Below, piece after piece: positions 5,129 through 63,916 of a DNA stretch of 64,000 nt (within the stretch, counting starts at the first letter, position 1; each line of letters opens with the position of its first letter). The notes under the pieces are model-generated. The model saw only the letters and a list, made by a program, of their open reading frames with translations, had not been told where the DNA came from and made no database searches. The stretch is from an uncultured Anaerolineales bacterium (lineage in GTDB: Bacteria; Chloroflexota; Anaerolineae; B4-G1; SLSP01), in the NCBI GenBank assembly GCA_964508025.1, contig CAZDSF010000009.1, forward strand, positions 7,310 through 71,309, written 5' to 3'. The translations under genes were made by a program, and so were the position numbers.

Positions 5129-5133
5129 GGCGG

Positions 5134-32175: not shown

Positions 32176-32189
32176 CCGAAAGAATGACA

Positions 32190-32286
32190 ATAGTTCGTAG
32201 AGCATCGTGAGCCGTGAGCCGTTCACCACGCGCAGACTGGGCTCTACTCACGGCTGACCCACTACTATTTCAGGGAGGTTACACAA
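32190..32286 (+). promoter_or_regulatory. Copy A of a recurrent structured 5' leader element (see findings)
   Basis: TAGTTCGTAGAGCATCGTGAGCCG...CTCTACTCACGGCTGACCCACTACTATTTCAGGGAGG, immediately before the ATG at 32287. Confidence 0.5.
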
Positions 32287-33885
32287 ATGAAACGCTATTC
32301 CATACTGCTATGGGCGTTGGCGCTGGCAAGCCTGATGTTAGCCGCCATCTATGCTGTGAGCCTGGCTTCGACATTGACGCCGCCGTATGTCGTTGCCATC
32401 CAGGACACGGGCGCCAACACGCATCCGTATCGGGTGGGCGTGGATTCCGCGCGCGGGTTGGCTTATGTGCTGGATCAGCAGGGCCAGATCTGGGTCTTTG
32501 CCGGCACGGAGATCACGGCCACACTCCCAGGCGGCAGCCCCAATTACGTCGCGGTGGCGCCGGGCGGCTACACCTATGTGACCCAACGCGACGGCGGTGC
32601 GGTGCGCGTGCTGGAGGGCAAAGCGCTGCGGGGTACGGTTTCGCTGGGCGGCAAAGTCTCCGGGGCGGCGGCGGTGCTCACCAGCACCCAGAACGTCTAC
32701 GTGGCGCTGCCCCAGGCGAACCAGGTGGCCGTGTTTCAGGGCTATGGCGCTGTGCCGGTCACATACATTGATGTGGGCGTCGAACCTTTCGCCCTGGCTA
32801 CTAACCCGACCACCGGGCGCGTCTACGTCGCCAACCTCCGGTCGCACAACGTCTCGGTGATCGAGGGGACATCCGTCATCGCCACGATTCCAGTCGGACA
32901 ATTCCCCGCTGCGGCGGCGGTGAACCCCATCAACGGTTACGTCTACGTCGCCAACAGCGGCAGCAACACTGTCAGTGTCATCCAGGGGCTTACGGTGATC
33001 CAGACCGTGAACGTTGGATATAATCCCGGCGACATCGCCGTGAACCCCGCCAACGGGCGCGTGTACGTAGTCAATAACGGCGACCCCGTCAACCCTGGCT
33101 CTTTGAGCGTGCTACAAGATGCGCAGGCTGCGCCCGTCGCTACGACGCAGGTGGGAAATGATCCACGCGCCGTGGACGTGAATCCGCGCAGCGGGTATAT
33201 CTATGTCGTCGGCGGGCGCGGGAATGTGGGGACCGTAGCCGTGCTGAGCGACACCCTGGTCATCGAGACATTCCTGCCGGTAGGGCACTCGCCAGAAGAT
33301 GTGGCGGTAGATCCGGTGAGCGATCTCGGCTACGCTTCGCTCTACAAATCAGCGGGGGGAGCCATGGGGCAGGTGGTCATCTTGGGCCGCTCCGAGGCTT
33401 CGGTGGCGCCGGTAGACCCCGTGACCGGCGCCACGCTCGCTTGTGAGGGGGTAGACGGGCGCCCTATCCAAATCGAAATCCCTGCCAACGCAGTCACGGA
33501 TACAGTAACGCTCCTCTGCGCCGGCTGGATGCCCGACACGCTCCCCACCCACCAATTCGCCGGCCAGGGATTCTTGCTCAAGGTGTACAAATTCGGCGTC
33601 CACCGTCCCGGTTATCAATTCCAGACGCCCATCACGGTGCGCGCCGCTTATCCCATCCCCCTGCCCGGCGACGTCGATGTTGCGGAACTGGAGCTGCGGG
33701 TCGGCGCTTCTGGCGGGGGCGTTTGGGGAACGACGGGCATCGTCTCGCAGCAAGTGCAATCCGCGCAACAACGCCTGATAGCGACCCTTTTGAGACTTCC
33801 AGAACGGTCACAGGATGGCTATGCGTTGGTGACGCCGGCAGGCAAGTTCATCTATCTGCCATTGGTGCTGAAGACCGCCAACTGA
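32287..33885 (+). CDS. Secreted YVTN-family beta-propeller repeat protein
   Basis: Signal/TM followed by repeated YVAN/YVVN blades (GRVYVANLRSHNVSVIEG, GYVYVANSGSNTVSVIQG, GRVYVVNNGD). Confidence 0.7.
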   Translation: MKRYSILLWALALASLMLAAIYAVSLASTLTPPYVVAIQDTGANTHPYRVGVDSARGLAYVLDQQGQIWVFAGTEITATLPGGSPNYVAVAPGGYTYVTQRDGGAVRVLEGKALRGTVSLGGKVSGAAAVLTSTQNVYVALPQANQVAVFQGYGAVPVTYIDVGVEPFALATNPTTGRVYVANLRSHNVSVIEGTSVIATIPVGQFPAAAAVNPINGYVYVANSGSNTVSVIQGLTVIQTVNVGYNPGDIAVNPANGRVYVVNNGDPVNPGSLSVLQDAQAAPVATTQVGNDPRAVDVNPRSGYIYVVGGRGNVGTVAVLSDTLVIETFLPVGHSPEDVAVDPVSDLGYASLYKSAGGAMGQVVILGRSEASVAPVDPVTGATLACEGVDGRPIQIEIPANAVTDTVTLLCAGWMPDTLPTHQFAGQGFLLKVYKFGVHRPGYQFQTPITVRAAYPIPLPGDVDVAELELRVGASGGGVWGTTGIVSQQVQSAQQRLIATLLRLPERSQDGYALVTPAGKFIYLPLVLKTAN

Positions 33886-33898
33886 GCCACAACAAAAA

Positions 33899-33934
33899 CC
33901 CTCTCTGCGGCGATGTGCTTTGCCGCAGAGAGGG
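33899..33934. terminator. Bidirectional hairpin terminator between the YVTN gene and asnS
   Basis: CCCTCTCTGCGGCGATGTGCTTTGCCGCAGAGAGGG followed by TCGTTTCTT. Confidence 0.55.
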
Positions 33935-33984
33935 TCGTTTCTTACGAGTGCGAGTCCCCAGCACCGCCTCCACGGGCTGGCGCG

Positions 33985-35325
33985 CTACGGGTAGACGCGC
34001 TTGAGCGTGCGCGGGAAGGGAATCGTCTCCCGAATGTGCTCGATGCCGCAAATCCAGGTGACGGTGCGTTCGACGCCCAAGCCAAAACCGCTGTGCGGCA
34101 CGCTTCCAAATTTGCGCAGCTCCATATACCACGTGAACGCCTCTTCGGGCAGCTTATCGCGGTGGATGTGCTCCAGCAACTTCTGCGGATCGGAGATACG
34201 CTCACTGCCGCCGATGATCTCCCCATACCCCTCCGGCGCGAGCAAATCCACGCTCTTGCAGACCTCTGGGCGTCCGGGCCACGGCTCCATGTAGAAGGCT
34301 TTGACGGCAGTGGGATAGCCGTAGACGAACACCGGTTTGTCGAAGCGCTTGGTGAGCTCGGTCTCGTGCGGAGAGCCGAAGTCGCCGCCCCATTCAATTG
34401 CCAGCTGCGCTTTGAGTTCGGGATTATCGGTCTCCGCGCGAATTTCAGCCAGCATCTCCAACGCCTGATCGTAAGAGATACGCGGGAAGGGCGGCGTAAT
34501 TCGCTCCAGGAAGGTCGTATCGCGGCCCAGGAAAGCCAGCTCCGCCGCGCGCTCGCGCAACGTCCGCTGAACGATGTGTGAGACGAATTGCTCCTCGATC
34601 TCCATCAGCTCGTCCAGATCACAAAAAGCGATTTCCGGCTCCACCATCCAGAACTCGGTGAGATGGCGGCGCGTCTTGGATTTCTCCGCGCGGAAGGTTG
34701 GCCCAAAACAGTAAACGCGGTTGAAGGCGAAGATATTGGCTTCGTTGTAGAGCTGCCCGGTCTGCGCCAGATACGTCGGCTCGCCGAAGTAATCCACCTC
34801 GAACAGCGTCGTCGTGCCCTCGCCGGCGGCAGGCGTGAGGATAGGCGTATCCATGTGGATGAAGCCGTTGTTGTTCAGCCACTCGTGGATGGCGTTGATG
34901 ACCGTGGCGCGCACGCGCAAAATGGCCCACTGGCTCTGTGTGCGGATCCAGAGGTGACGGTTGTCGAGCAGGAAATCCACGCCGTGCTCCTTGAGCGCGA
35001 TGGGATACTCGTCCGCCACGGCCTGCACCACCTCCAAGCCGGTCACGCCGACCTCGAAGCCGCCGGGAATGCCCGGCGCGCGCGGATCGGCGCGCACCAC
35101 ACCCGTGATGATGACGGAAGATTCCTGGGGAATATGCGCTGCCGTCTCGAAAACCTCGGCCGGCACATCCTTGCTGAAGACCACGCACTGGACAAAGCCA
35201 TACCCATCGCGCAGCAAGAGAAACACCAGCTTGCCCTTGTGGGTACGGTTGTACACCCAACCGCGAAGGGTCACTTCCTGTCCGACGTAATCTGCAATCT
35301 GTTCCACGCGAATGATGGGCGCCAT
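33985..35325 (-). CDS. asnS: Asparaginyl-tRNA synthetase
   Basis: Class IIb aaRS with [24 protein letters not shown] (AsnS-type motif 2) and an N-terminal OB anticodon-binding domain; RBS GGAGG before MAPIIRV. Confidence 0.85.
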
Positions 35326-35420
35326 AGCCTTTCCCTCCTCTGAAAATCCTCTGAAAATAGTAATGGGTGAGCAGAGAGCCGTAAGTAGTGAGCAGGTTTT
35401 GCCAACCTCGACTGCTCTCT
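35326..35420 (-). promoter_or_regulatory. Copy B of the recurrent 5' leader element
   Basis: The reverse complement reads ...GTAGAGAGCAGAGAGCAG...CTCACTACTTACGGCTCTCTGCTCACCCATTACTATTTTCAGAGG..., directly upstream of the asnS start. Confidence 0.5.
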
Positions 35421-35460
35421 GCTCTCTACGCACTCTTTTCGGCTGTATCGCCGGGCACAC

Positions 35461-36114
35461 TCAGGCCGTTTCTACGACGCGGCGGCGCTGGAACAGCCGG
35501 CGCGCGAAGAAAGCCAGCACGCCCACGACGCCCACCACCAGCACAACCTTTTCGTAACGCCCAACCCATTCCAGCACCAGGGGCCAGTTCTGTCCCAAGA
35601 CAAAGCCCGCCAACGCCAACACGAAGCTCCACAGCGCGGTACCGATGGCAGTGTAGAGGGTGAAGCGTCCCATGTTCATCACGGCGATCCCGGCAGGCAC
35701 GGAAATCAGACTGCGCACGATGGGCACCATGCGCCCAAAGAAAATCACCAGCTCGCCGTAACGATTGAACCAGGCGAGCGCCGTGTCGAAATCGGCTTCT
35801 GAAAGCAAGAACCACTTGCCGAAGCGGCGCAACAACTCCCGCACCCGCTCTTCGCCGAACCAGTAACCGATTCCGTAGAAGACCATCGCGCCCGCCACCG
35901 AACCGATAGCGCCCACGAGGGTGATCCCCAGAAGCGTGAAGCCGCCGCGCTTTTCGGCTGCGAGCCAGCCCGCCATGGGCAAGACCGCTTCAGAGGGAAT
36001 GGGAGGGAAAACGTTCTCGATGAACATCACCAGGCCCAGCCCAACATAACCCAATGCCTCGATGATTCCCTGCACCCAGATCGCAATCTTGTCCAACAAA
36101 CCACTCAATCCCAT
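35461..36114 (-). CDS. DedA/SNARE-associated family membrane protein
   Basis: VMFIENVFPPIPSEAVLPMAGWLAAE signature with 4-5 TM helices. Confidence 0.8.
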   Translation of the reverse strand: MGLSGLLDKIAIWVQGIIEALGYVGLGLVMFIENVFPPIPSEAVLPMAGWLAAEKRGGFTLLGITLVGAIGSVAGAMVFYGIGYWFGEERVRELLRRFGKWFLLSEADFDTALAWFNRYGELVIFFGRMVPIVRSLISVPAGIAVMNMGRFTLYTAIGTALWSFVLALAGFVLGQNWPLVLEWVGRYEKVVLVVGVVGVLAFFARRLFQRRRVVETA

Positions 36115-36240
36115 AACTAAACTCCTTTGCGTATGACCGCTGAAAGCTTGGCGTATCGTAAAGCAATGACCGGATTATACCACGGATACAAGTGCGCTGG
36201 GCATTTCATGGCAAAACATTGTCACGACTTTACAAGATTG

Positions 36241-36250
36241 TGGTATACTT
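36241..36250 (+). promoter_or_regulatory. Extended -10 promoter TGgTATACT; a GTGGGTCT...AGACCCAC hairpin follows in the leader
   Basis: TTGTCA-N19-(TG)GTATACT. The hairpin GTGGGTCTCACCCAACCGCGAAAGACCCAC lies at 36279-36308. Confidence 0.35.
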
Positions 36251-36332
36251 ATTTCGTACTTATGCGGTGTTTTTCGCCGGTGGGTCTCACCCAACCGCGA
36301 AAGACCCACAAACTATGGTGAGGAAAGCACCC

Positions 36333-37124
36333 ATGTATGTCTTTGTGGTATCCGATGGCACAGGCATGACTGCCGAGCAGGTCGTTAACGCCGCGCTAAT
36401 GCAATTTGAAGGCGTCGAAGTGCAAACCATCCGGTACGCGGATGTTACCACTCCGGCGCAAGTACAGCAAGTGGTGCAAGATGCAGCAGCGCGCCACGCC
36501 TTGATCGTCCACACGCTGGTCTCCGATGAGCTGCGCGTGCTGATGCTCAATCAGGCGCGGGAGTATCATGTGGATGCCATGGATTTGATGGGGCCGATGC
36601 TGGATCGGCTCACGCTGGGATTGGGCAAGCCGCCCAAACAACAGCCGGGACTCTACGCCAAGCTCTCTGAAGAACGCAACCGGCGCATCGAGGCTGTGGA
36701 ATTCGCCCTGCGGCATGATGATGGACAACGCGCGGACGAGCTGCACAATGCGGAGATCGTGTTGGTGGGCGTATCGCGCACAATGAAAACCCCCATTTCC
36801 ATTTATCTGGCCTATCACGGGTGGTTCGTAGCCAATGTCCCGCTGATTGTCGGCATTGCGCCGCCGGCGTCTCTGCTGGCATTGCCGCGCGAAAAGGTAT
36901 TCGGGCTGACCATGGCCCCGGAGCGGCTGTTGGATTTGCGACGCACGCGGGCGCGGGCCACCGGATTGCCCGTGGGATCAACGTATGAATCCATTGCTGA
37001 TTTGACTGAGGAACTGCGCATGGCGCGAATGCTCTGCGCGGAACAGGGGTGGCGCACCATCAGCGTCACGGCGAAATCGGTTGAGGAAATCGCCAGTGAG
37101 ATCACGACACTGGTACGGAGGTAG
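36333..37124 (+). CDS. ppsR: PEP synthase / pyruvate phosphate dikinase regulatory protein (PpsR/PDRP, kinase-pyrophosphorylase)
   Basis: P-loop-like VLVGVSRTMKTPISIYLA together with YVFVVSDGTG (DUF299 family). Confidence 0.75.
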   Translation: MYVFVVSDGTGMTAEQVVNAALMQFEGVEVQTIRYADVTTPAQVQQVVQDAAARHALIVHTLVSDELRVLMLNQAREYHVDAMDLMGPMLDRLTLGLGKPPKQQPGLYAKLSEERNRRIEAVEFALRHDDGQRADELHNAEIVLVGVSRTMKTPISIYLAYHGWFVANVPLIVGIAPPASLLALPREKVFGLTMAPERLLDLRRTRARATGLPVGSTYESIADLTEELRMARMLCAEQGWRTISVTAKSVEEIASEITTLVRR

Positions 37125-37127
37125 CAC

Positions 37128-38357
37128 ATGAGTTGGAACGTCGAGGAAATTCGCCGCGAGTTCCCAATCCTACAACAACCGGTACATGGCAAGCGCCTGG
37201 TCTTCCTGGATAGCGCTGCTAGCGCCCAGAAGCCCCGCGCGGTGATCGAGGCGATCACTTCGGTGTACACCACGGCGTATGCCAACGTTCACCGGGGCTT
37301 GTACAGCCTGGCAGAGGCCGCGACCGAGCGTTACGAGGCGGCGCGGGAAAAGATCGCGCACTTTATCGGGACCCCTGATCCCGGCGAGATCATCTATGTC
37401 CGCAACGCCACCGAGGCGCTGAACCTGGTCGCCTACGCCTGGGGCCGGCATCACATTGGGGCCGGCGACCGTATCATCATTACCGAAATGGAGCATCACA
37501 GCAACCTGGTGCCTTGGATGCAGTTGGCGCAGGAACGAGATGCTGAACTGGCATATCTGCCGGTGACGGATGCGGGCGAGCTAGATCTCGCGGCGTTGCC
37601 GCCGCTGCTGGCGGATGGACGCGCGCGCCTGGTCGCCTTCACGCTGATGTCGAACGTGCTGGGGACGATTCCGCCCGCGCGCGAGCTCATCGCCCAGGCG
37701 CGACAAGCGGGAGCGATGGTGGTAGTGGATGGCGCACAGGCGGTACCGCACATACCGGTGAATGTGCAGGCATTGGGCGCGGATTTCCTGGCGATTTCGG
37801 CGCACAAACTTGGCGGGCCGGGCATCGGCGCGCTATGGGGTCGCCGGAAGCTGCTGGAAGCGATGTCGCCATTCCTCTTCGGCGGGGATATGATCCTCAG
37901 CGTGAAGAAGCACAGCGTCAGCTGGAATGATCTGCCCTACAAATTCGAGGCGGGGACGCCGGCCATCGCTGAAGCAGTGGGCTTTGGAGCGGCGGTGGAT
38001 TTTCTCTCCGCGCTGGGAATGGAAGCCGTGCAACAGCATGAACAAGCGTTGGTCGCCTACGCGCTGGAACAGCTGCCGGAGATACCGGGGCTGCACATTC
38101 TCGGGCCAACCCAATCACAACGTCGCGGCGGCGCGGTCTCGTTCTGGCTGGAAGGCATTCACCCGCACGATATCGCCTCAGTGCTAGATGCAGAAGGCGT
38201 CTGCATCCGCGCCGGGTTGCACTGCGCCGAGCCGTTACACGCCCGTTTTGGCCTGCCCGCCAGCGCGCGGGCAAGTTTCTACATTTACAACGACACAGAT
38301 GATGTAGACGCGCTGATCGCGGGGCTACATCGCGTGATCAAACTACTGCGGCGCTAA
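37128..38357 (+). CDS. sufS: Cysteine desulfurase SufS (class V aminotransferase)
   Basis: PLP-lysine context SAHKLGGPGIG and active-site loop RAGLHCAEPLHARFG. Confidence 0.85.
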   Translation: MSWNVEEIRREFPILQQPVHGKRLVFLDSAASAQKPRAVIEAITSVYTTAYANVHRGLYSLAEAATERYEAAREKIAHFIGTPDPGEIIYVRNATEALNLVAYAWGRHHIGAGDRIIITEMEHHSNLVPWMQLAQERDAELAYLPVTDAGELDLAALPPLLADGRARLVAFTLMSNVLGTIPPARELIAQARQAGAMVVVDGAQAVPHIPVNVQALGADFLAISAHKLGGPGIGALWGRRKLLEAMSPFLFGGDMILSVKKHSVSWNDLPYKFEAGTPAIAEAVGFGAAVDFLSALGMEAVQQHEQALVAYALEQLPEIPGLHILGPTQSQRRGGAVSFWLEGIHPHDIASVLDAEGVCIRAGLHCAEPLHARFGLPASARASFYIYNDTDDVDALIAGLHRVIKLLRR

Positions 38358-38383
38358 ACCGGCGCAGAAGAGACGAGGACATA

Positions 38384-38764
38384 ATGAGCGATCTATACCG
38401 TGAACAGATGTTGGAGCATTACCACGAGCCGCAGAATTTTGGCGTGTTGCCGGACGCAGAAGTGGATGTCCATCTCGACAATCCCACCTGCGGCGATACC
38501 ATCCACCTTACCGCGCAGCTCGACGCCGAAGGCCGCATCGCCAAAGTGATGTTCGAGGGGCACGGCTGCGTCATCAGTATGGCGGCGGCTTCGATGCTCA
38601 CCAAGGAGGTCATCGGCAAGACGCCGCAAGAAGTCGCAGCGCTGGAGCTGCACGACATCGAAACGATGATGGGCGGGCTACGCCTGAGCATGGGGCGGGT
38701 GAAGTGCGCGCTGCTTTCCGTCAATGCGCTCAAGAAGGGCTTGAAGGAACGCGGCAAGCTATAA
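38384..38764 (+). CDS. sufU: SufU/IscU-like Fe-S scaffold / sulfurtransferase
   Basis: NPTCGDTIHL...GHGCVISMAAASMLT...KCALLS (three Cys ligands). Confidence 0.85.
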   Translation: MSDLYREQMLEHYHEPQNFGVLPDAEVDVHLDNPTCGDTIHLTAQLDAEGRIAKVMFEGHGCVISMAAASMLTKEVIGKTPQEVAALELHDIETMMGGLRLSMGRVKCALLSVNALKKGLKERGKL

Positions 38765-38801
38765 CGCGACACTGATGAGCGTCGCAGCTGAGGAGGATGC
38801 T

Positions 38802-39557
38802 ATGCAGCGCGACGAGGTTCCGCCCCCCGCCAGCCATGCGGCTCGCGGGGGGTTTCGCTCCCCACAACGCTGGCGGCGAGCGGCGCTGCGGGTGGCTCTG
38901 CTTGCGGCGTTCGCGGGAGGGCTGCTCTGGTGGAGACCGGCGCTGGCGCCTTGGATCGCGCGGTTTCAGGATCGCGCCTGGGTGGAGGCGCTGATTCGGC
39001 GTTGGGGCGTATGGGCGCCGCTGGCTTCGATTGCGCTGAATGTGTTGCAGGTATTGCTGGCGCCGATTCCGGGGCAGATCTTCGCCCCGTTGAACGGTTA
39101 TCTGTTTGGGCCGTTATGGGGCGTCGTGATCAGCATCGTGGGTGTGCAACTCGGTTCGATGCTGGCGATGGGGCTAAGCCGACTCTTCGGGCGTCCGCTG
39201 GCGGAACGGCTCGTCGGCGCCGCGACACTGGCGCGATGGGATCGGCTCACCCGTCGCTGGGGCGCGCCGTTGATCGTGCTGGTATTCGCGCTCCCGCTGC
39301 TCCCCGATGATGTAATGTGCTTTGCCGCCGGCCTGACGGAAATCCCGCTGCGACGGTTGTTCGTGCTCACGCTGCTCGCGCGCTTTCCGGGCGTGGCGGT
39401 TGCAGTGCTGCTCGGTGATCGCGCTTTACGCTTGTCGCCGGCGGCGCTGGCAGGGCTGGGAGCGTGCCTGCTGGCAGCAGCCTGGCTCGTTGCGCGCTAT
39501 CATCGTCGCATCCAGGCGTGGTTCCTCTGGCGCTTTCGCCGTTATCTGCGCCAGTGA
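38802..39557 (+). CDS. TVP38/TMEM64 (DedA-related VTT domain) membrane protein
   Basis: LQVLLAPIPGQIFAPLNGYLFG and VFALPLLPDDVMCFAAGLT motifs. Confidence 0.65.
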   Translation: MQRDEVPPPASHAARGGFRSPQRWRRAALRVALLAAFAGGLLWWRPALAPWIARFQDRAWVEALIRRWGVWAPLASIALNVLQVLLAPIPGQIFAPLNGYLFGPLWGVVISIVGVQLGSMLAMGLSRLFGRPLAERLVGAATLARWDRLTRRWGAPLIVLVFALPLLPDDVMCFAAGLTEIPLRRLFVLTLLARFPGVAVAVLLGDRALRLSPAALAGLGACLLAAAWLVARYHRRIQAWFLWRFRRYLRQ

Positions 39558-39632
39558 CGCCAAAGCGGGCGCGGGGGTTGCCTGGCGCAAAGCGCGACGC
39601 CCGCCCACACCGGAGATACGCAACGCAGACGA

Positions 39633-40859: not shown

Positions 40860-40860
40860 C

Positions 40861-41712
40861 TCAGCGGCTCCGGGACGTGGTAGAAGCAGCGCTGGCAGGA
40901 TCGCGTTTGAGCCACCGCTGCAACATAGAAGATGACGCGGACTTCTGCGCGAAGAAGGTGCTGAGAATGGCCGTCAAACGGTCGGGGTCGAGATCACGGA
41001 TGATACGTCCGTTATGCGCCAACGAGATAGCGCCGCGCTCTTCAGATACCACCAGGGCGATAGCATCGCTATCTTCGGTGATGCCGATCGCCGCGCGATG
41101 CCGCAAGCCCAGCTGGCGATCCGAGAGAAAAGCGGAGGTCAGCGGCATCACACACGCCGCTGCCGCGATACGATGATCCTGGATGATGACGGCGCCATCA
41201 TGGAGCACCGTATGATGGTCGAAGATGGTCGTGAGCAGCTCCGTCGTCACCAGTGCGTCTATAAGCACACCGGTTTCGATGTATTCCTGCAAGCCGGTGC
41301 CGCGCTCGAAAACAATCAAGGCGCCGGTTTTGCGATTCGCCATATAGCGCACCGCAGTAGCGGTAGCGGCGAGCATTTTCTCACCCGCGTCATTGTTGGA
41401 AGCCGCGAGCGACAGAAAACGTCCGCGTCCCAGCCGCTCCAACGCCCGGCGCAATTCGGGCTGGAAGATAACCGGCAGGGCAAACAGGATCACCGGCAAT
41501 ACCTGCGTTACCAGCCAGCTGAGGGCTTGCAGGCGCACGATACGCCCCAGCAAAGCCAATGTCACCAGCAGGGCGGTAATCCCACGCAACAACGTCACGG
41601 CGCGCGTGCCGCGCAGCGCGTAGAAGATCGCAAAGAAAAGCATTGCGACCAGAGCAATATCCACCATATCCGGCCAGGATAGGCGCTCGATCAACCAACG
41701 AAGTTCCCACAT
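40861..41712 (-). CDS. cdaA: Diadenylate cyclase CdaA (DisA_N/DAC domain, membrane-anchored)
   Basis: Three N-terminal TM helices and the DAC motifs ALIVFERG, HDGAVII and LGLRHRAAIGITEDSDAIALVVSEERGAIS. Confidence 0.85.
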   Translation of the reverse strand: MWELRWLIERLSWPDMVDIALVAMLFFAIFYALRGTRAVTLLRGITALLVTLALLGRIVRLQALSWLVTQVLPVILFALPVIFQPELRRALERLGRGRFLSLAASNNDAGEKMLAATATAVRYMANRKTGALIVFERGTGLQEYIETGVLIDALVTTELLTTIFDHHTVLHDGAVIIQDHRIAAAACVMPLTSAFLSDRQLGLRHRAAIGITEDSDAIALVVSEERGAISLAHNGRIIRDLDPDRLTAILSTFFAQKSASSSMLQRWLKRDPASAASTTSRSR

Positions 41713-41730
41713 AGTTATGTTACACGGCTC

Positions 41731-43992
41731 TCAAGGCGACGTTTGACCGGTGAGTTGATCGTGCAAGCTCACATAAGCCTCGATATTCGCCGGTTTCAGC
41801 GCAATGATCGCCTCCAGGGTTTTGATAGCGTCAGCCTGCTGTCCGGCTTCCAATTGCAGGTCGCCCAGCACATCCAGGTGCTCTAGCGCTTTTTGCCGCT
41901 TGCCCGTGTTGAGATAGAGCTGCGCGGCGCGAAAACGCAACGGGATGGACTCAGGCTGCTCATGGATCAGATCTTCCAGAATGACGGCGGCTTTCTCACT
42001 GCGTTGCGTCTCCAGATAATGCTTGAGCAACTGATCCAGGGCTGCAACCGCAAGATGTGCGCGACCGACGCGCGGATAGAGGCGCATAAGCCCCAGATGC
42101 GCGCGCTCGTCATCGGGGGCAATGCGGGTGATTTCCTGATAATGCTTGATGGCGCTTTTCCAATCCAAACGTTGCATGTCGAGATCGGCCATGCGGTGCA
42201 GGATACGCACATTCCACTGTTTTTCAGGCGTCCCGCGCGGCGCCAGGCGCAACGCTTCCGCATAGGTATCCTGCGCGCGCTCCAGTTGCGCCAGTTGATA
42301 GTAGGCGTCGGCAAGCTCCAGATATCGGGCCAGGGCGTCATCAATCTGTCCCCGTTGAATCAGCATCTCAATCATGCGCGCGTGAATGGTGAAGTCCAGA
42401 GGCGAGAGTTCGAGAATCTGATGGTAGGCGGCCAATGCCAGCGGAATCTGTCCGCGAATCTCATAAGCCTGGGCAATGATGCGCATTTTCTCGATGGCAC
42501 TCTCCAGATTGCCGCTTTCGATGTAGAGCTGCGCCAACATACTGTGCAACGGCAGGTAGTACGGCGCCTTGCCAATAGAATAGGATAGCTCCTCCAGGGC
42601 GGCGTAGGTCTTCTTACGCCGGAGGTATTCCTGCGCCAGCGCCGCAGAACGCAACACATCTTCCGAACCAGAGAGGCTCAGGATTTCCGCCAGGCTCAGC
42701 ACGGTGCCGCTGCGCGCCATGCTGTCAAGTCGCCGCCGCGCCTTGAGGACTTCTTCCTCCCAGCCGCGCTGCCCCAGAAAGCCCACCAACGAGTTGACGA
42801 GATGCTGAATGCGTTCCGGCTCGCCGGTATTCACCAGGTTTTGCGCCAGCCCTTCATACACGCGGATGAGATCATCCACCTGTGTGCGTTCGACCGTGGT
42901 CAGGTCAATCACTTTGACGGCTTCGATAAAATGCTCTAGCGCTGCATCGAAGCGCCCCTGCGCTTGATAGCACTCGCCTAACGCGAAGTGGCTGCCCAGG
43001 AGATACTCAGGATCGGGCAAGGAACGCTCTAACTGGCTGATGGCCTCATCAAAGCGCATCTGCTCTTTATAGAGCAACCCCAGGTTGAAGTGGATTGAGG
43101 GCAAAGAGGTGCCCGCCGCCGCCAGACGCTCGTAAGCGCCCAGCGCGGTTTCCAAATCGCCGCGCGTCTGTGCATCCACGGCTTGCCCGATGAGCAAGCT
43201 CACCTCTTCGCTGGAAAGCCCCGGCGTCGCCGGACGTTCGTCATCGAAGAGGGATTCGGCTAACGATTCCAGCGCGCGCTGCCGCGCAATATCGGTAACG
43301 CTGCCCGCCTCGGCAACCAGATCTTCGATTGTTTCCTCTTCCAGCGCCGCCTCAGGCAGGCCCGCATCCCCCAACATGCCCGTAGCAACTGGGACAGGCA
43401 CCGGTCGCCCGCTCTGGAGCAGCAACATCACCTGCCCCAGTTGCCGATCGTTGGGCGTGAAACGCTGCATCTGCCGGCAAACTTCGATAGCCCACCGGTT
43501 GTGCTCGTGCTGATACAAATGCGCCAGCCAGAGGGTGGCGCGCAACGCCTTGTCCAGCATTCCCTGCTCCTGATAATACTTGAGCAGATCGGCCCAGGCG
43601 CGGTCATTGCGGGGGTTGTGCCGCACAGCGCTTTCCAGATTCGCCACGCGCTTATCCGTCAAACCCTGCGCCGCATACAGCGCTGCCGCTTCGATGTAGC
43701 GCGTTGCCGCCGCTTCGTTATCGCCGCGATGGGCCAAAATCTCGGCTAACCGCTCCCGGGGGCCGGGATCCTTGGGCGTGAGCGTTGTCAAGCGCTCATA
43801 GATCTCAGCTGCCTTTTCCAGGTCCCCAACATTGAACAAAGCCCAGGCGTAGCCCATGAGCGCAGAGCTGTCCTCCGGGAATTCCTGCAAGGCCCGGCTA
43901 TAAGCTTCAACTGCATCCGGCCATTTGTTCTGCCAGATCAGTTCGTTGGCCCGTTGCAACGCTTGTTCAAATCGCTGACGATTCCCGGCCAT
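41731..43992 (-). CDS. TPR-repeat protein (753 aa)
   Basis: Continuous TPR periodicity (W/LG/Y/A/F/A/P pattern). Confidence 0.7.
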   Translation of the reverse strand: MAGNRQRFEQALQRANELIWQNKWPDAVEAYSRALQEFPEDSSALMGYAWALFNVGDLEKAAEIYERLTTLTPKDPGPRERLAEILAHRGDNEAAATRYIEAAALYAAQGLTDKRVANLESAVRHNPRNDRAWADLLKYYQEQGMLDKALRATLWLAHLYQHEHNRWAIEVCRQMQRFTPNDRQLGQVMLLLQSGRPVPVPVATGMLGDAGLPEAALEEETIEDLVAEAGSVTDIARQRALESLAESLFDDERPATPGLSSEEVSLLIGQAVDAQTRGDLETALGAYERLAAAGTSLPSIHFNLGLLYKEQMRFDEAISQLERSLPDPEYLLGSHFALGECYQAQGRFDAALEHFIEAVKVIDLTTVERTQVDDLIRVYEGLAQNLVNTGEPERIQHLVNSLVGFLGQRGWEEEVLKARRRLDSMARSGTVLSLAEILSLSGSEDVLRSAALAQEYLRRKKTYAALEELSYSIGKAPYYLPLHSMLAQLYIESGNLESAIEKMRIIAQAYEIRGQIPLALAAYHQILELSPLDFTIHARMIEMLIQRGQIDDALARYLELADAYYQLAQLERAQDTYAEALRLAPRGTPEKQWNVRILHRMADLDMQRLDWKSAIKHYQEITRIAPDDERAHLGLMRLYPRVGRAHLAVAALDQLLKHYLETQRSEKAAVILEDLIHEQPESIPLRFRAAQLYLNTGKRQKALEHLDVLGDLQLEAGQQADAIKTLEAIIALKPANIEAYVSLHDQLTGQTSP

Positions 43993-44095
43993 GGCTCCTC
44001 CTGGAAGATCTCAAAGCGGAAATACCGCGCCACAAGGATACAAAACTCAAGGATTTGTGGCTTGAATATGAAAGGCTGTACAGGCGTCGGGAAGA

Positions 44096-45016
44096 TTATG
44101 CTTCCAAAACCCAGACGAGGATGGCTTTCTGGCCGTGCATCCGGTTCTCGGCTTGATCAAAGATCACGGATTGCGGGCCGTCGGCAACCTCATTGGTGAT
44201 CTCTTCGCCGCGATGCGCGGGCAAGCAGTGCATCACGATAGCATCTTTCTTGGCAAAAGCCAGCAGCTCTGTGTTGACCTGATAGGGCGGGAAGATCTTG
44301 CGGCGCTCTTCGGCCTCCGCTTCCTGTCCCATGGAAGTCCAGGTGTCGGTGTAGACCACATCGGCATCCGCAATCGCCTCACGGGGATCGTTGGTGACGT
44401 GGATTTTGGAGCCGCTTTCCGCCGCGAATTGCTGCGCCAGTTCCATCACATCCGCGCGCAGGCTGTAGCCCTCCGGCGCGCCGAGCGTGAAATCCATGCC
44501 CAGTTTGGTCGCACCAAAGATGAGCGAATGGGTGACGTTGTTACTATCGCCCAAATAAGTCAACTTGCGCCCTTTGAGCTCGCCCTTATGTTCGAACATC
44601 GTGAGAAAATCGGCCACACCCTGGCAGGGATGGGAATAATCAGAAAGCCCGTTGATGACGGGGACGGATGACCATTGCGCCAGCTCTACCACATCGGCAT
44701 GAGCAAAAACGCGCGCCATCACCACCTGCACATAGCGCGCCAGCACACGGGAGACATCCGCGACGCTCTCGCGCTTCCCGAGCTGAATTTCGTTGGGGGA
44801 GAGATACAGTGCGTGCCCGCCCAAGTGCAACATCGCCATATCAAACGACACGCGTGTGCGCAGGCTCGGCTTTTGGAAGACCATCCCCAACACCTTGCCT
44901 TTGAGCAACGGCGCATTGCCGCCTGCTTTCCATTCTGTTTTCAGCTGTACCGCCAGATCCAAAATGGACTGTAACTCGGCGGCGGTCAAATCGGCCAATG
45001 TCAGAAAGTGCTTCAT
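44096..45016 (-). CDS. argF: Ornithine carbamoyltransferase
   Basis: SLRTRVSFD (STRTR carbamoyl-phosphate motif) and HCLPAHRGEEI. Confidence 0.9.
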   Translation of the reverse strand: MKHFLTLADLTAAELQSILDLAVQLKTEWKAGGNAPLLKGKVLGMVFQKPSLRTRVSFDMAMLHLGGHALYLSPNEIQLGKRESVADVSRVLARYVQVVMARVFAHADVVELAQWSSVPVINGLSDYSHPCQGVADFLTMFEHKGELKGRKLTYLGDSNNVTHSLIFGATKLGMDFTLGAPEGYSLRADVMELAQQFAAESGSKIHVTNDPREAIADADVVYTDTWTSMGQEAEAEERRKIFPPYQVNTELLAFAKKDAIVMHCLPAHRGEEITNEVADGPQSVIFDQAENRMHGQKAILVWVLEA

Positions 45017-45288
45017 ATTTACCTCCAGGGCTGTATACTTGTTGTAGAACCCAAATCAAGTATACCACGAAGCCCAAACGAAAAAAGCGCGTATGCAAGA
45101 GGGCCACAATTTTGGGGACACTCCGCGTGAACGGTGGTAACAGATGTCATCCTGCTTTGCCTATACTTGCCGGTTGAAGTGCTGGCATGAGCGTGCTATA
45201 CTGAATGCTGGAAACGGGTCGCTCGTCACCATGACTCCTGACCGCATGACTTTTGATTTGCAATTTGTGATTCGAAAGGAGACCACCT

Positions 45289-46341
45289 ATGTCCATAATG
45301 CAAGCGGTTGCTAAGGCGCAGCCCGCGCCCGGATTGGAAGCGATTCAGGCGCCAATTCCGGTTCCCGGCCCCCGTGATGTCCTGATCAAGGTCAAAGCCA
45401 CCTCCATCTGCGGTACCGATGTCCACATTTACAAGTGGGATCGCTGGTCGCAGGGGCGCATCAAACCGCCGCTGATTGTGGGGCACGAGTTCACCGGCGA
45501 GATTGTGGCGGTGGGCGAGCAGGTGCGCCCCGATGAGCCGGGCGTGGGCGATTATGTCTCAGCGGAGAGCCACATCGTCTGCGGTGTGTGCCAGCAGTGC
45601 CGGTTGGGGCTAGGGCACATCTGCCCGAACACCCGCATCATTGGCGTGGATATTGACGGCTGTTATGCTGAGTATATCGCCATCCCGGTGGAGAACGCCT
45701 GGAAAAACCCTGAAGATATGCCCGTGCCGGTCGCCAGCTTGCAGGAGAATTTCGGCAACGCCGTGCATACCGTCGCGGCGACCGATGTGCGCGGCAAGAC
45801 GGTGCTTGTCACCGGCTGCGGGCCGGCGGGGCTGATGTCTATCCCCGTAGCGCGGGCTTTCGGTGCGGAGACCATCGTGGCGACGGATCTCAGCCCCTAT
45901 CGGCTGGAGCTGGCGCGCAAAGTGGGCGCGGATCTGGCCGTGAATCCGGCGGAAGATGACCTGTTCCAGCGGGCGCAGGATGCCGTGCGCGGTAAGGGCT
46001 TTGATGTGTTGATCGAAATGTCCGGCGCTCCGCAAGCCTTGGTGCAGGGATTGCGCCTGCTCAAACCTGGCGGGGCTGCCTCACTGCTGGGACTGGCGCC
46101 GGGCGTGCTCAATGAATTCGACCTGAACAATCTGGTCATCATGAAGGGTGTAACAGTGTATGGCATCGCCGGGCGGCGGATGTGGGAGACCTGGTACCAG
46201 ATGCGCGCGCTCATCGCTTCCGGCGCGGTGGATTTGCGCCCCATCATCACGCACGAGTTCCCCCTGAGCCGCTGGCACGAGGCGATGGAGACAATGGCTT
46301 CGGGCAATAGCGGGAAGATTGTGCTGTATCCGGGTTCGTAG
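45289..46341 (+). CDS. tdh: L-threonine 3-dehydrogenase (Zn-dependent MDR family)
   Basis: ICGTDVHIYKWDRWSQ...GHEFTGEIVAVG and structural-Zn Cys cluster CGVCQQC; kbl is nearby. Confidence 0.8.
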   Translation: MSIMQAVAKAQPAPGLEAIQAPIPVPGPRDVLIKVKATSICGTDVHIYKWDRWSQGRIKPPLIVGHEFTGEIVAVGEQVRPDEPGVGDYVSAESHIVCGVCQQCRLGLGHICPNTRIIGVDIDGCYAEYIAIPVENAWKNPEDMPVPVASLQENFGNAVHTVAATDVRGKTVLVTGCGPAGLMSIPVARAFGAETIVATDLSPYRLELARKVGADLAVNPAEDDLFQRAQDAVRGKGFDVLIEMSGAPQALVQGLRLLKPGGAASLLGLAPGVLNEFDLNNLVIMKGVTVYGIAGRRMWETWYQMRALIASGAVDLRPIITHEFPLSRWHEAMETMASGNSGKIVLYPGS

Positions 46342-46436
46342 AAAGTAGTGAGTAGCGAGCGGTTCGCATTGCCTAAACTGCTCACTACTCACGGCTCACC
46401 CATTACTACCATATTTAAGAGGAAATAGGAAACATC
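46342..46436 (+). promoter_or_regulatory. Copy C of the recurrent 5' leader element
   Basis: AGTAGTGAGTAGCGAGCGG...CTGCTCACTACTCACGGCTCACCCATTACTACCATATTTAAGAGG, before the ATG at 46437. Confidence 0.5.
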
Positions 46437-47891
46437 ATGACCCTTATCACAACCAACTATCAACCCAGAATGACCCCCAATGCGCCGGATAAGTTAAACA
46501 TCAAACGCACAATCTTCTTGTCCCTGGCTTTCATGTCCGTGCTTGCCGGATTAGGCTATTACAATCTGGCCGTCCCACTGCTCTTAGGCGATGCGCAATA
46601 TGGCTTAGTCCCCAAAGATTTGCTCTTGTTCGGCATTTTCGGCCAGCAAACCGTGATCGGCGCGATTTTAGTCCTCGACAATATCCTGGCCCTCTTGCTA
46701 CAGCCGTATTTTGCCGCGTTGAGCGATCGCGCCCAGAGCAAATGGGGCCGGCGGATGCCATTTATTCTCATCGGGGGCATCTCCGCTGCGTTTTTCTTCA
46801 TCGTCACACCCTTGTTCAAAGTGCTGCTAGGTCTCATTGCGATCCTCTTCTTCTTCAATGTGGCGATGGCCTTTTATCGTAGCGCGGCGCTCACGTTGTT
46901 GGCGGATTACACACCCGATGCAGTCAGATCCAAAGGCAGCGGCTTACAACAATTGGTCGCCAACGGCGGAGCCATTTTTGCCTTCCTACTCCCTACACTC
47001 ATTAACATCGTTCGTCCCGGCATCTCCACTTTCGATGCGCGGTATCTGGGCTTTCCAATCATCGCCGTTGTGATGCTCATCATCCTGGCCGTGCTATTCA
47101 AGACGATCAAAGAAACCCCCACCGGAGATAGTTTCCTGAAAATTGGCGATACGCCCATCGCCATTGACCCGGTCAATTTTGAGGTGCAGACCTCCAGTGC
47201 TGCTGTAGAGAAATCCAGGCGCAATTGGGCTTACTTCAAGAATGCGCTCTTCGGCAAAAATCGCAGTATGCTGTTCCTGATGATCTACACCTACTTCTCC
47301 TACACCGCGTTTGCTTCCATCGAGGCATTCTTCACGATCTTCGCCAATAACTACCTCGGCATCGGGGATGGACAAGCCGGACAACTGTTGTTGATCTATA
47401 CCGCCACCATGATCATTTCAGCGTTTGTATCGGGCATGATCGGCCAAAAGATCGGGCGACAAAAGGCGCTGCGGCTGGGCACCACGGGGCTGATTGTGGT
47501 GATGGCCCTGTTATCCTTTGTCGTGACCTTGAAACAGCCGATTTGGATCGCGGTGTTGTTTGTGCCGGTGGGCTTCTTCTGGATGACAGTGATTGTCAAC
47601 ATTTTCCCAGTGCTGTGGAGTCTCGCGCCGGGCGGGGACGAAGGCGCGTACACCGGCATTTACTATTCTTTCAACCAGGCCGCCTACGTTTTCGGGCCAA
47701 TCCTCATGGGTCTGGTGTTTGATTTCATCGGTGGGGGAATGGGCAACGACAAATATGTGCTCATGTTCCCCTTTATCGTTTTCTGTGAGATTTGCGCCTT
47801 TGTTTTGTTGTACGGGGTCAAGGGCGGCGAAGCGCGCTTGAGTGAAGCCGAAATCGAGGCCCTACGCGAGCAACTGGTTGAAGCGAACTGA
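46437..47891 (+). CDS. MFS transporter
   Basis: 12-TM architecture and an MFS loop motif (LSDRAQSKWGRRMPF). Confidence 0.75.
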   Translation: MTLITTNYQPRMTPNAPDKLNIKRTIFLSLAFMSVLAGLGYYNLAVPLLLGDAQYGLVPKDLLLFGIFGQQTVIGAILVLDNILALLLQPYFAALSDRAQSKWGRRMPFILIGGISAAFFFIVTPLFKVLLGLIAILFFFNVAMAFYRSAALTLLADYTPDAVRSKGSGLQQLVANGGAIFAFLLPTLINIVRPGISTFDARYLGFPIIAVVMLIILAVLFKTIKETPTGDSFLKIGDTPIAIDPVNFEVQTSSAAVEKSRRNWAYFKNALFGKNRSMLFLMIYTYFSYTAFASIEAFFTIFANNYLGIGDGQAGQLLLIYTATMIISAFVSGMIGQKIGRQKALRLGTTGLIVVMALLSFVVTLKQPIWIAVLFVPVGFFWMTVIVNIFPVLWSLAPGGDEGAYTGIYYSFNQAAYVFGPILMGLVFDFIGGGMGNDKYVLMFPFIVFCEICAFVLLYGVKGGEARLSEAEIEALREQLVEAN

Positions 47892-47917
47892 ATTCCGACT
47901 GCTTGCAAATAACGAAC

Positions 47918-48002
47918 ATAGTTCGTAGAGAGCAGTGAGCCGTTGCGGCGCCGGAACTACTCACTGCTCACCGCTCACCCATTACTACTTTGAGGAGGAA
48001 CC
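47918..48002 (+). promoter_or_regulatory. Copy D of the recurrent 5' leader element
   Basis: TAGTTCGTAGAGAGCAGTGAGCCGTTGCGGCGCCGGAACTACTCACTGCTCACCGCTCACCCATTACTACTTTGAGGAGG, before the ATG at 48003. Confidence 0.5.
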
Positions 48003-55713: not shown

Positions 55714-55756
55714 CGGGTTCCTCCTTAGATGTCAGAAAATCAATCACGATACTGCA

Positions 55757-55785
55757 ATTATATCGGAGATAAAGAAGATAGACAA
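55757..55785 (-). promoter_or_regulatory. Sigma70-like promoter TTGTCT-N17-TATAAT for the RAMP operon
   Basis: Minus-strand read ...TTGTCTATCTTCTTTATCTCCGATATAATTGCAG...; ~40 nt upstream of the RBS AAGGAGG. Confidence 0.45.
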
Positions 55786-63312: not shown

Positions 63313-63423
63313 AGAGTTGTGCGCAGGCGCCCATTTCCTCACCGTTTATGGTTTCCCACATCATCTTTAGCGGTCGTTGCATTTCTACGATTTTCATTTA
63401 TAATCAAGCATAGATATATTTGA

Positions 63424-63777
63424 ATGTATCAACCCACAAGGAACTCCATGCCCGCTATCACCGAAGAAGAAGCCGTTTTGCTGCATCGCTACATCTGCGA
63501 AGGGGTGGGCGATCCCAAGCGCCTGCGCCTGCTCTACCTGGTTGCTGAACACCCCTGCAAAGTCTCCGATCTCACGGAACTGCTGGGCGTTGCCCAGCCC
63601 ACCGTCTCCCATCACCTGCGCATCCTGCGCGACCGGGGCCTGGTAGAGGCGCGCAAGGAAGGGACGACGGTGTATTACTCCCTCAGCCATCCCCGCATCC
63701 TCGAAGCCCTGGATATGATGCGCGCTATCGTGGCGCAGTTCTTGGCGGAGGGAGCGCAAGTATTGAGTAATTCGTAA
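63424..63777 (+). CDS. ArsR/SmtB-family transcriptional regulator
   Basis: KRLRLLYLVAEHPCKVSDLTELLGVAQPTVSHHLRILRDRGLV (winged HTH). The start may be the M at 63448. Confidence 0.8.
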   Translation: MYQPTRNSMPAITEEEAVLLHRYICEGVGDPKRLRLLYLVAEHPCKVSDLTELLGVAQPTVSHHLRILRDRGLVEARKEGTTVYYSLSHPRILEALDMMRAIVAQFLAEGAQVLSNS

Positions 63778-63916
63778 TGCGTACTGCGTAATGCGTACTG
63801 CGTAATGGGCAGAATCCCGCCCTATCGCTTTCTCGCTGACTCGTTGATTCGCTGATTTGCTGATTTTTTGATTTGCTGATTTTTTGATTTGCTGATTTTT
63901 TGATTTGCTGATTTTA
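63774..63916. repeat. Tandem repeats: 14-bp unit GTAATGCGTACTGC x2.5 (63774-63808) and 16-bp unit TGATTTGCTGATTTTT x4 (63853-63916)
   Basis: Read directly from the sequence. Located between the arsR stop and the next gene's RBS. Confidence 0.85.

Follow-up and report, generated by a model that had tools for sequence, protein, structure and literature searches.

Repeats of the Correia/NEMIS, ERIC, RUP, and BOX type are non-coding sequences of ~100 nt found near genes, where their co-transcribed hairpins can alter how the mRNA is processed, its stability, and the expression of what lies downstream. The STRR heptanucleotide repeats of cyanobacteria form plain tandem arrays between the genes of these filamentous bacteria. 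Chloroflexi are among the bacteria in which GTAG-tagged REPs have been described (Di Nocera et al. 2013, PMC3733652); most REPs of this type are found where neighboring ORFs are unidirectional or convergent, near the end of the upstream ORF, their GTAG terminus is a frequent source of a TAG stop codon, and their families include sub-families with alternative complementary stem residues (PMC3733652). Here, we describe a repeat family with a ~75-nt core (67 to 76 nt; ~110 nt with flanks) that is present in four copies (A to D) in the window (the whole 64-kb stretch of DNA that was analyzed). The four copies are probably dispersed, lineage-restricted, REP/MITE-like palindromic intergenic repeats with a GTAG head.

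Read 5′ to 3′, the head (GTTCGTAGAG) was followed by GAGnnGT heptamers that made up a purine arm, then by a variable loop, by ACnnCTC heptamers that made up a pyrimidine arm, by the tail (CTCACCCATTACTA-yTTT), and by a Shine-Dalgarno (SD) sequence; the conserved tail was G poor (CACCCAYYACTAYTTT, also written CACCCAYYACTAYTT), and both arms were tandem heptamers (TRF, period 7). Stems were 7 to 14 bp long, loops were 15 to 35 nt long, and 14 nt of tail was unpaired. Mean pairwise identity among copies A to D was 93% in the tail, 90% in the head, 71% in the 3′ arm, 65% in the 5′ arm, and 41% in the loop, and the head core CGTAGA(G/A) was invariant in these copies and in L001, a related locus from another genome. 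An earlier note on this DNA had pointed to a conserved box before the SD, and such a box exists: the 14-mer CTCACCCATTACTA was exact in three copies with two mismatches in copy A, and its match count in the window was reached by 0 of 100 shuffles. An nhmmer profile and a covariance model, both built from these same four copies, found exactly four full copies in the 64 kb (E values of ~1e-18 to 1e-22). Compared by eye as inverted copies, head and tail (GTTCGTAGAG versus CCCATTACTA) agreed at 9 of 15 positions at best; neither terminal inverted repeats nor a target-site duplication was evident, and no consistent flanking duplication surrounded copies A to D. Unrelated perfect heptamer or octamer arrays were also seen just 5′ of SDs in other spacers of the clade (window 63767-63916; ATTCGCC ×3 in L047; GACTAnnn ×3 in L079).

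All four elements of the earlier note were recovered upstream of the genes that it had named. Copy A (core 32193-32267, + strand; head GTTCGTAGAG at 32193-32202 and tail CTGACCCACTACTA at 32254-32267) occupied the spacer 32176..32286 between the stop codon of an NMT1-like gene and the ATG of a propeller gene, with SD GGGAGG at 32273-32278 (+). Copy B (core 35433-35358, − strand; head GTGCGTAGAG, tail CTCACCCATTACTA at 35371-35358) occupied the spacer 35326..35460 (−) between the stop codon of a VTT-domain gene and the ATG of asnS, and it had an 11-bp stem (GAGCAGAGAGC/GCTCTCTGCTC), an 11-nt duplication (TTTTCAGAGGA ×2, 35358-35336, −), and SD GAGGAGGG at 35340-35333 (−). Copy C (core 46334-46408, + strand; element 46334..46436, tail 46395-46408) had a head, GTTCGTAG, that provided the tdh stop codon TAG (46339-46341), and an SD-like AAGAGGA at 46417-46423 (+); its identity to A, B, and D was only 66 to 79%, so its donor was some other copy. 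Copy D (core 47921-47987, + strand; 10-bp stem GAGCAGTGAG/CTCACTGCTC, tail 47974-47987) occupied the spacer 47892..48002 (+) between the stop codon of MFS and the ATG of kbl, with a small extra palindrome (ACGAAC-ATA-GTTCGT, 47914-47928, +) and SD GAGGAGGA at 47992-47999 (+). A possible head-only relic, GTTCATAGAGAG...CCTCACCG (63303..63350, +), was weak (nhmmer E = 0.02; cmsearch 12 bits, E = 2.2), and its TAG was the stop codon of an AraC-type gene (62341-63312).

Each of copies A to D filled the entire stop-to-start gap between two co-directional genes in sense orientation, its core lying 15 to 32 nt ahead of the downstream ATG; the copies were 1.5 to 11 kb apart, and one was inverted. Pfam searches agreed with the gene identities given before, the downstream genes encoding a beta-propeller, asnS, an MFS protein, and a kbl-type aminotransferase, which are functionally unrelated. 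Canonical TGnTATAAT promoters stood ahead of the genes that open the operons (tdh, the VTT-domain gene, and UbiA). Copies A to D are thus intercistronic spacers within operons and not 5′ leaders downstream of promoters. The element followed the orientation of its gene and abutted the SD at all six independent loci, including copy B on the opposite DNA strand, as the earlier note had described for the four in the window. That note would have taken randomly oriented or gene-internal copies with no stem covariation as a sign of an ordinary repetitive element; none of the six loci had the element in antisense orientation.

Further independent members were found at other junctions beyond the window. 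One (L105, 5163-5090, −) lay in sense orientation ahead of a rubrerythrin gene, with a head (GCGTAG) that gave a stop codon, a stem GGTAATGGGTGATG/CATCACCCATTACC, and a tail CACCCATCACTATTTCA-GAGGAGG; another (L071, 6320-6400, sense orientation) had no GTAG. A pattern search that was too strict, in that the L105 member would escape it, returned one related match from 185,579 species-representative genomes, an orthologous D copy in an Anaerolineae MAG, with the others being chance matches, and 65 loci from a metagenome scan, where L047, L071, and perhaps L066 were related and the rest were chance matches or human-gut sequence. The viral contigs scanned gave chance matches or none. The gene at the window edge was found elsewhere only in contigs no longer than 2.3 kb. 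Pfam annotation of the ~50 genes in the window and of related loci totaling ~220 kb revealed neither a transposase nor a RAYT or integrase.

Comparison with relatives bore most directly on the nature of the family. Copies A and B were present in a 95%-identical strain of the same species (L108), with three changes in the core of A and none in the 76-nt core of B. The nearest other species (L075, asnS 93% identical in amino acids) was without A and B at the orthologous junctions, and B was also missing from L076, L078, and L079. Copy C was missing from L104 and L109 (~95% nucleotide identity), where the gene order was tdh, a 438/444-aa gene, and MFS. By blastn, window positions 46343-46433 stood in place of 1,440 nt of L104, one breakpoint falling exactly on the stop codon of tdh and the other 3 nt ahead of the MFS ATG; the replaced segment carried a conserved 44x-aa gene, which we regard as ancestral and which in L104 and L109 had no element on either flank. 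Copy D was 100% identical in L104, L109, L110, and L111, occurred only in the window species and, in diverged form, in L001/L047, and was missing from L105, L106, and L107; the MFS gene upstream of it was inserted relative to L106 and L107. The family is probably recently spreading and is probably not a conserved riboswitch-like regulator. On the other side, no differences were seen across the 111 nt of the D spacer or the 76 nt of the B core, so that both were more conserved than the 5% strain background, and this invariance, with the gene-following orientation (6/6), hints at selection on the transcript and not at pure selfish DNA.

Under the dispersed-repeat reading, different strains and species within a single Anaerolineae genus-level group have gained the family at differing operon junctions. 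New copies may form through duplication or recombination at the DNA level, for which a RAYT-type Y1 transposase would be the obvious candidate. Each copy is a complete stop-to-start module (head, two complementary arms, free loop, tail, and SD), in which the TAG of the head CGTAGAG can terminate the upstream gene. Once inserted, it would presumably be transcribed as part of the operon mRNA, where the hairpin may act as a generic REP-like barrier in intercistronic stability or processing, and tail and SD may provide a separate ribosome entry site for the downstream cistron.

A structured leader RNA acting in cis, be it riboswitch, attenuator, or target of a protein or sRNA, whose hairpin and box would control downstream translation or readthrough, is an unlikely alternative, although sense orientation and SD adjacency at all six loci, the 93% conserved single-stranded tail, and the lack of variation in D spacer and B core would suit it. 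The earlier note had favored such a leader partly on the strength of complementary stems, and the stems that it quoted are present (GAGCAGTGAG/CTCACTGCTC in D, AGTAGTGAG/CTCACTACT in C, GAGCAGAGAG/CTCTCTGCTC in B), but its compensatory reading failed on a common alignment. Since each arm is a tandem of heptamers, the stems do not share one register with respect to the box, and in the diverged D copy of L001/L047 the 3′ arm pairs in yet another register. RNAalifold returned a covariation penalty of +2.04 and a both-sided change in 1 of 16 pairs; the covariation score was equal to the shuffled mean and was equalled by 315 of 500 shuffles, a test of low power with only five distinct sequences. 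Chimeras with swapped 5′ and 3′ arms folded nearly as well as native copies (−24.0 versus −26.6 kcal/mol), and 8 of 120 permutations were as good. The claim that covariation marks a functional RNA and not a repeat element was not upheld.

Folding gave the leader no more help. Z-scores of the core hairpins were uneven (A, −0.8; B, −2.8; C, −4.5; D, −2.6), and the antisense strand folded as well as the sense strand, which makes G·U strand asymmetry uninformative as a test of an RNA role. The SD was predicted to be unpaired with a probability of 0.35 to 0.70, and no consistent SD-sequestering or terminator structure was predicted. Rfam gave no match across the window at the gathering threshold and, at E ≤ 5, nothing or only miRNA noise at the four copy sites, in line with the earlier view that the element is neither a T-box nor a known riboswitch. 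In B, C, and L001, the 5′ arm does read NAG-N4-NAG-N4-NAG, a spacing that HutP-type proteins bind, but this period is lost in A, D, L105, and L071, and a HutP/TRAP-like NAG-repeat site was dropped since some copies are without it. Orientation and SD adjacency, then, are compatible with a role at the RNA level, but the unrelated downstream genes, the intercistronic position, and the junctions of close relatives that do without the element, for copy C even within the species, speak against a cis-acting leader. In the preferred reading, the element does not regulate in a ligand- or gene-specific way.

If that reading is right, the family has an unusual trait: a copy takes up exactly the stretch between a stop codon and the RBS of the following gene, so that a one-step change of operon architecture and expression is possible. 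We note, as speculation with a low chance of being right, that the element could be a mobile operon-junction module, made up of stop codon, hairpin, unstructured tail, and RBS, that is inserted at junctions or exchanged among them and that would mediate gene insertion or deletion in operons and then set downstream translation or mRNA fate. Copy C in exchange for the 1.44-kb gene and copy D with the inserted MFS gene would be examples, and the driver could be an unrecognized recombinase or a single-stranded DNA transposase. Such a module, if true, would be a new route of operon remodeling in Chloroflexota.

That the elements are attC-like sites, marking operon junctions where a site-specific recombinase inserts or excises genes, is quite improbable. 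The conserved ends with a palindromic variable center, the position between co-directional ORFs, the direct copies C and D on either side of the MFS gene, the placement of C exactly where sister strains have an extra gene, and that of D 3′ of an MFS gene inserted relative to L106/L107 would all fit. However, no RYYYAAC or GTTRRRY core site could be read in head or tail, the window and the related loci yielded no integrase, housekeeping genes (asnS and kbl) are among the flanking genes, the 44x-aa gene of the sister strains has no element on either side, and copy B is isolated on the opposite strand.

Independent local generation of short tandem repeats, by slippage with inversion, would make the copies unrelated to one another, and the unrelated arrays 5′ of SDs in other spacers speak for such a process; it is very improbable, since head and tail are 90 to 93% identical in the same order of parts, which would hardly be possible under independent origin, and whole-element nhmmer E values were 1e-21 or lower. 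A promoter or terminator module separating transcription units can be all but dismissed, despite a hairpin between genes and a T-run in copy B and L001, as the T-run lies 11 to 14 nt past the stem without adjoining it, a consensus scan found no promoter-like or terminator-like site inside any copy, and the real promoters are the canonical ones located elsewhere.

Several smaller ideas were also rejected. An ECF-type promoter (AAC...CGT) in the head had the wrong spacing (10 to 13 nt, by eye), and complementarity was unconvincing (by eye) both for pairing of the box with the SD and for a mimic of the 3′ end of 16S rRNA. Complementarity to the 16S GGGTGAGTAA region extended over only a 7-mer (by eye), and a small ORF common to the copies, as a leader peptide would need, was absent.

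If the dispersed-repeat reading is right, the family is an uncharacterized transcribed palindromic repeat in Anaerolineae, an abundant but genetically little-studied group, and offers a concrete model for REP-like effects on intercistronic expression outside Proteobacteria. For annotators, recurrent "leaders" of this kind should not be labelled riboswitches. The presence or absence of a copy of the C type could serve as a strain-level marker.

Among known systems, riboswitch, T-box, and attenuator leaders share with the element a structured sequence upstream of the SD, but Rfam match, covariation, expression platform, and conservation at orthologous sites are absent here. Integron attC sites are alike in being imperfect palindromes, variable at the center and conserved at the ends, that lie between co-directional ORFs and in their association with gene presence or absence; here, however, core-site consensus, integrase, and array are all absent, housekeeping genes are among those that flank the copies, the head GTTCGTA mismatches GTTRRRY, and the tail has no inverse core. 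STRR sequences share the heptamer-period tandem repeats in intergenic DNA, whereas in the element a unique head and a unique tail enclose inverted pairs. The MITEs (Correia/NEMIS, ERIC, RUP, and BOX) are likewise ~100-nt non-coding hairpin repeats beside genes, but the element has no recognizable terminal inverted repeat or target-site duplication, and its head and tail differ.

GTAG REPs (REP/BIME/SMAG) differ in size, being 20 to 40 bp with a 6- to 13-bp stem and a small loop, whereas the element is 67 to 76 nt, two to three times longer than classical REPs, with loops of 15 to 35 nt. Its arms are tandem heptamers that pair in several registers, it has a conserved 14- to 25-nt non-palindromic tail joined to the SD, the GTAG that is unpaired in classical REPs is paired in copy A and L001, and the loci examined showed no head-to-head or tail-to-tail dimers and no RAYT gene. 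In other respects the two are alike. Both are extragenic palindromes with GTAG at the end toward the upstream ORF, and a terminal GTAG (GTRG) next to the stem was present in copies A to D, L001, and L105 (GCGTAG), though not in L071. The TAG of the head serves as the upstream stop codon (copy C, L105, and the relic at 63303), and stem variants remain complementary. The distribution is strain or species specific, and the four copies in 64 kb all lie between unidirectional ORFs, where co-transcription would be expected.

Four copies of one hairpin repeat were located by site reading and alignment, each between two co-directional genes: copy A (32193-32267, plus strand) ahead of a YVTN propeller gene, copy B (35433-35358, minus strand) ahead of asnS, copy C (46334-46408, plus strand) ahead of an MFS gene, and copy D (47921-47987, plus strand) ahead of kbl. 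The 14-mer box near the 3′ end (CTCACCCATTACTA) was exact in B, C, and D and carried two mismatches in A, a match count reached by none of 100 shuffles. The family was also recovered by a repeat finder (D5/D7/D20, I2/I4/I13), and searches of the 64 kb with an nhmmer profile and with a covariance model, both trained on copies A-D themselves, returned exactly four full copies. By alignment, shuffles, and profile searches, the recurrence upstream of four genes described in an earlier note on this DNA is real and non-random. A weak match to the head only, at 63303-63350 (nhmmer E = 0.02; cmsearch E = 2.2), reads GTTCATAGAGAG...CCTCACCG and may be a degenerate fifth copy; the TAG in GTTCATAGAGAG is the stop codon of an AraC-type gene (62341-63312).

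From 5′ to 3′, the element comprises a weakly conserved flank (AAAnAAyGAnnATA in A and D), the head GTTCGTAGAG, GAGnnGT heptamers forming a purine-rich arm, a loop of 15 to 35 nt that varies between copies, ACnnCTC heptamers forming a pyrimidine-rich arm (e.g., ACTGCTC ACTACTC ACGGCTC), the tail (CT)CACCCATTACTA followed by yTTT, and an SD, with the ATG 15 to 32 nt past the box. Independently, TRF detected period-7 repeats within A, B, and D. Conservation is concentrated at the ends: mean pairwise identity among A-D was 90% for the head and 93% for the tail, against 71% for the 3′ arm, 65% for the 5′ arm, and 41% for the loop. Copy B also contains an exact 11-nt tandem duplication (TTTTCAGAGGA twice; 35336-35358, minus strand), shared with strain L108, which doubles an SD-like GAGG before the real asnS SD.

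Every copy is predicted to form a hairpin, though not in one shared register: GUAGAGC/GCUCUAC or GAGCCGUGAG/CUCACGGCU in A, GAGCAGAGAGC/GCUCUCUGCUC in B, GUGAGUAG/CUACUCAC plus GAGCGGUU/AACUGCUC in C, and GAGCAGUGAG/CUCACUGCUC in D. Measured against dinucleotide shuffles, the cores of A-D had z-scores of −0.8, −2.8, −4.5, and −2.6. The stem changes had been read as compensatory, and this as grounds for excluding a repeat element. Covariation was tested on five distinct sequences, at low power: RNAalifold on a common alignment gave a covariation penalty (+2.04) with both-sided change in only 1 of 16 pairs, and the covariation score equaled the shuffled mean (reached by 315 of 500 shuffles). The 84% of paired cells reflects a conserved palindrome, not compensation. 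Chimeric 5′/3′ arm pairs reached −24.0 kcal/mol versus −26.6 kcal/mol for native pairs, with 8 of 120 permutations equally good; any GAGnnGT array can pair with any ACnnCTC array. Antisense folded at least as well as sense, so G·U pairs carry no strand signal. Penalty, shuffles, and arm swaps all speak against covarying stems, and the argument for excluding a repeat element fails even allowing for the low power. In partition-function folds of whole spacers, unpaired probability was 0.35 to 0.70 for the SD and 0.40 to 0.88 for the tail, with no consistent SD sequestration; SD and start-codon pairing values are approximate for B, L001, and L105 (the latter two loci of related organisms), where an offset downstream window gave GGC, TGA, and GAG as “start” triplets instead of ATG.

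Pfam domain order was UbiA, NMT1-like, A, beta-propeller; VTT-domain, B, asnS; and Zn-dehydrogenase (tdh), C, MFS, D, kbl-type aminotransferase. All four copies occupy the full stop-to-start spacer (111, 135, 95, and 111 nt for A-D). Promoters here are canonical TGnTATAAT, upstream of the first gene in each operon carrying a copy, and a consensus scan found no promoter-like or terminator-like site inside any copy; the copies thus separate cistrons within polycistronic mRNAs and are not 5′ leaders that follow a promoter. Gene-ward orientation and SD adjacency, as first described, held in six of six loci, also for B on the opposite DNA strand; the 5′ leader reading did not. The Rfam comparison that had been proposed matched no known family, whether run with the gathering threshold or with a cut-off of E ≤ 5. 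The window encodes no transposase, RAYT, or integrase.

The names of the nearest asnS and kbl homologues point to an uncultured Anaerolineae bacterium as the source of the window. Strain L108 of the same species (95.6% nucleotide identity) carries both A and B. Its B core shows no change; its A has three core changes and forms a perfect 12-bp stem (GTGAGCCGTGAG/CTCACGGCTCAC), and the A spacer differs at 8 of 111 nt, a rate at or above background. In the nearest other species (L075; asnS 93% amino-acid and about 79% nucleotide identity), the element is absent, and unrelated spacers of 206 and 164 nt lie at the B and A junctions. It is also absent from L076, L078, and L079, whose VTT-asnS spacers are short (34 to 73 nt).

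The tdh-kbl junction (window 45289-49190; L104, L106, L107, L109, L047) is a gene-content hot spot in the clade. tdh and kbl are adjacent in L106 (39-nt spacer) and flank a 448-aa gene in L107; L047/L001, L104, and L109 have tdh, a 434- to 444-aa gene, MFS, D, and kbl, and the window has tdh, C, MFS, D, and kbl. The 44x-aa gene is similar to NF038122 metalloproteases, with a score short of the family cut-off. Alignment of the window with L104 (94 to 95% nucleotide identity) has two exact breakpoints, one at the tdh stop codon and the other 3 nt ahead of the MFS ATG. Between them, 91 window nt (46343-46433) occupy the place of 1,440 nt carrying the conserved metalloprotease-like gene; copy C is therefore a strain-level polymorphism. 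Since C shares only 66 to 79% identity with A, B, and D, it must have had some other copy as donor, and the family probably extends beyond the members in the window. Four same-species contigs carry copy D without a single difference in 111 nt (100% identity), conservation found in just 1.7% of equally long windows. In L001/L047 (87%-identical species), the 5′ arm of D is unchanged and its 3′ arm differs, pairing in another register (GUAGAGAGCAGU/ACUGCUCUCUAC). A different repeat lies in this sister species where the window has C: a ~60-nt tandem duplication containing the hairpin GTGCTGG...CCAGCAC (L047 3200-3330, minus strand), in a 486-nt spacer before MFS.

Two further, independent members are intercistronic and sense. 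One precedes a rubrerythrin gene (L105 5163-5090, minus strand); its head GCGTAG gives the upstream gene's stop codon, its stem is a perfect 14 bp (GGTAATGGGTGATG/CATCACCCATTACC), and its tail is CACCCATCACTATTTCATTGAGGAGG. The other (L071 6320-6400) has the hairpin, CTCACCCACTACTA, and an SD. Beyond these loci, scans of 185,579 species-representative genomes, JGI metagenome contigs, and viral contigs returned essentially no exact box pattern. At L066 8985-9040 (minus strand), a heptamer run (CTGACTA CTCACTA CTCACCC ACTACTA) resembles the 3′ arm and tail and may be related to the family; after it come a perfect 15-bp palindrome (TTCATGAACCGCTCG...CGAGCGGTTCATGAA) and no clear gene start.

Several other features were observed in the window. 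Perfect short tandem repeats (63767-63916) form the spacer from an ArsR-like ORF, whose stop TAA lies inside the first repeat, to the next gene (ATG 63931): GTAATGC/GTACTGC about six times, then TGATTTGC/TGATTTTT about nine times, with the SD GGGAGG directly after. The two arrays are not complementary to each other, and comparable arrays lie 5′ of SDs in relatives (ATTCGCC three times in L047; GACTAnnn three times in L079). An intein with a LAGLIDADG homing-endonuclease domain interrupts the SufB gene (20531-22954, minus strand). A Cas6-like gene and a 1,074-aa RAMP-domain protein (50624-55713, minus strand) occur in a window that contains no CRISPR array; in L104 (95% identical), this region is broken into smaller ORFs, and 54144-55770 has no counterpart. 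Adjoining a tRNA gene, an ORF (3782-4487, minus strand) has an HTH_32 domain of the transposase-associated, IS630-like type and is possibly left over from an insertion at the tRNA. A giant NACHT-TPR protein (2,386 aa) is encoded at 4738-11898 (plus strand).

These data are at odds with conserved regulation of the propeller, asnS, MFS, or kbl genes, and the structured regulatory leader proposed in the earlier note is not supported: copies are intercistronic, vary between strains and species, and lack covariation. The data fit a dispersed repeat gained at operon junctions, sometimes replacing them, in one narrow Anaerolineae lineage. Such a repeat would be transcribed as part of the operon mRNA, where its stable hairpin, lying between cistrons, could be a generic barrier or a site of processing and the G-poor tail with the SD might serve as an independent ribosome entry site for the downstream cistron. 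REPs stabilize upstream mRNA and, if situated within 15 nt of a stop codon, can stall terminating ribosomes (summarized in PMC12306157); copy C and the L105 member show this proximity. The uniform orientation, and the invariance of D and B between strains differing by 5%, hint that copies are tolerated or retained for an RNA-level effect; the rate of change in A argues against this.

The element matches neither a MITE (no TIR or TSD) nor an attC site (no core sites or integrase). The closest described kind is the GTAG-tagged REPs, which occur in Chloroflexi, mainly between unidirectional or convergent ORFs near the upstream ORF's end, frequently lend TAG as that ORF's stop codon, and form sub-families differing by alternative complementary stem residues (Di Nocera et al., PMC3733652). 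Host phylum, ORF context, TAG stop donation, and stem sub-families are all seen here. Unlike REPs, however, the present element is two to three times longer, with long loops, arms that are heptamer arrays, and a conserved non-palindromic tail fused to the SD, and neither dimers nor a RAYT gene were seen; for these reasons, it is not filed as a REP. Its best description is a novel form of transcribed palindromic intergenic repeat, a class already known, with an unusual stop-to-RBS modular layout that merits a genome-wide census.
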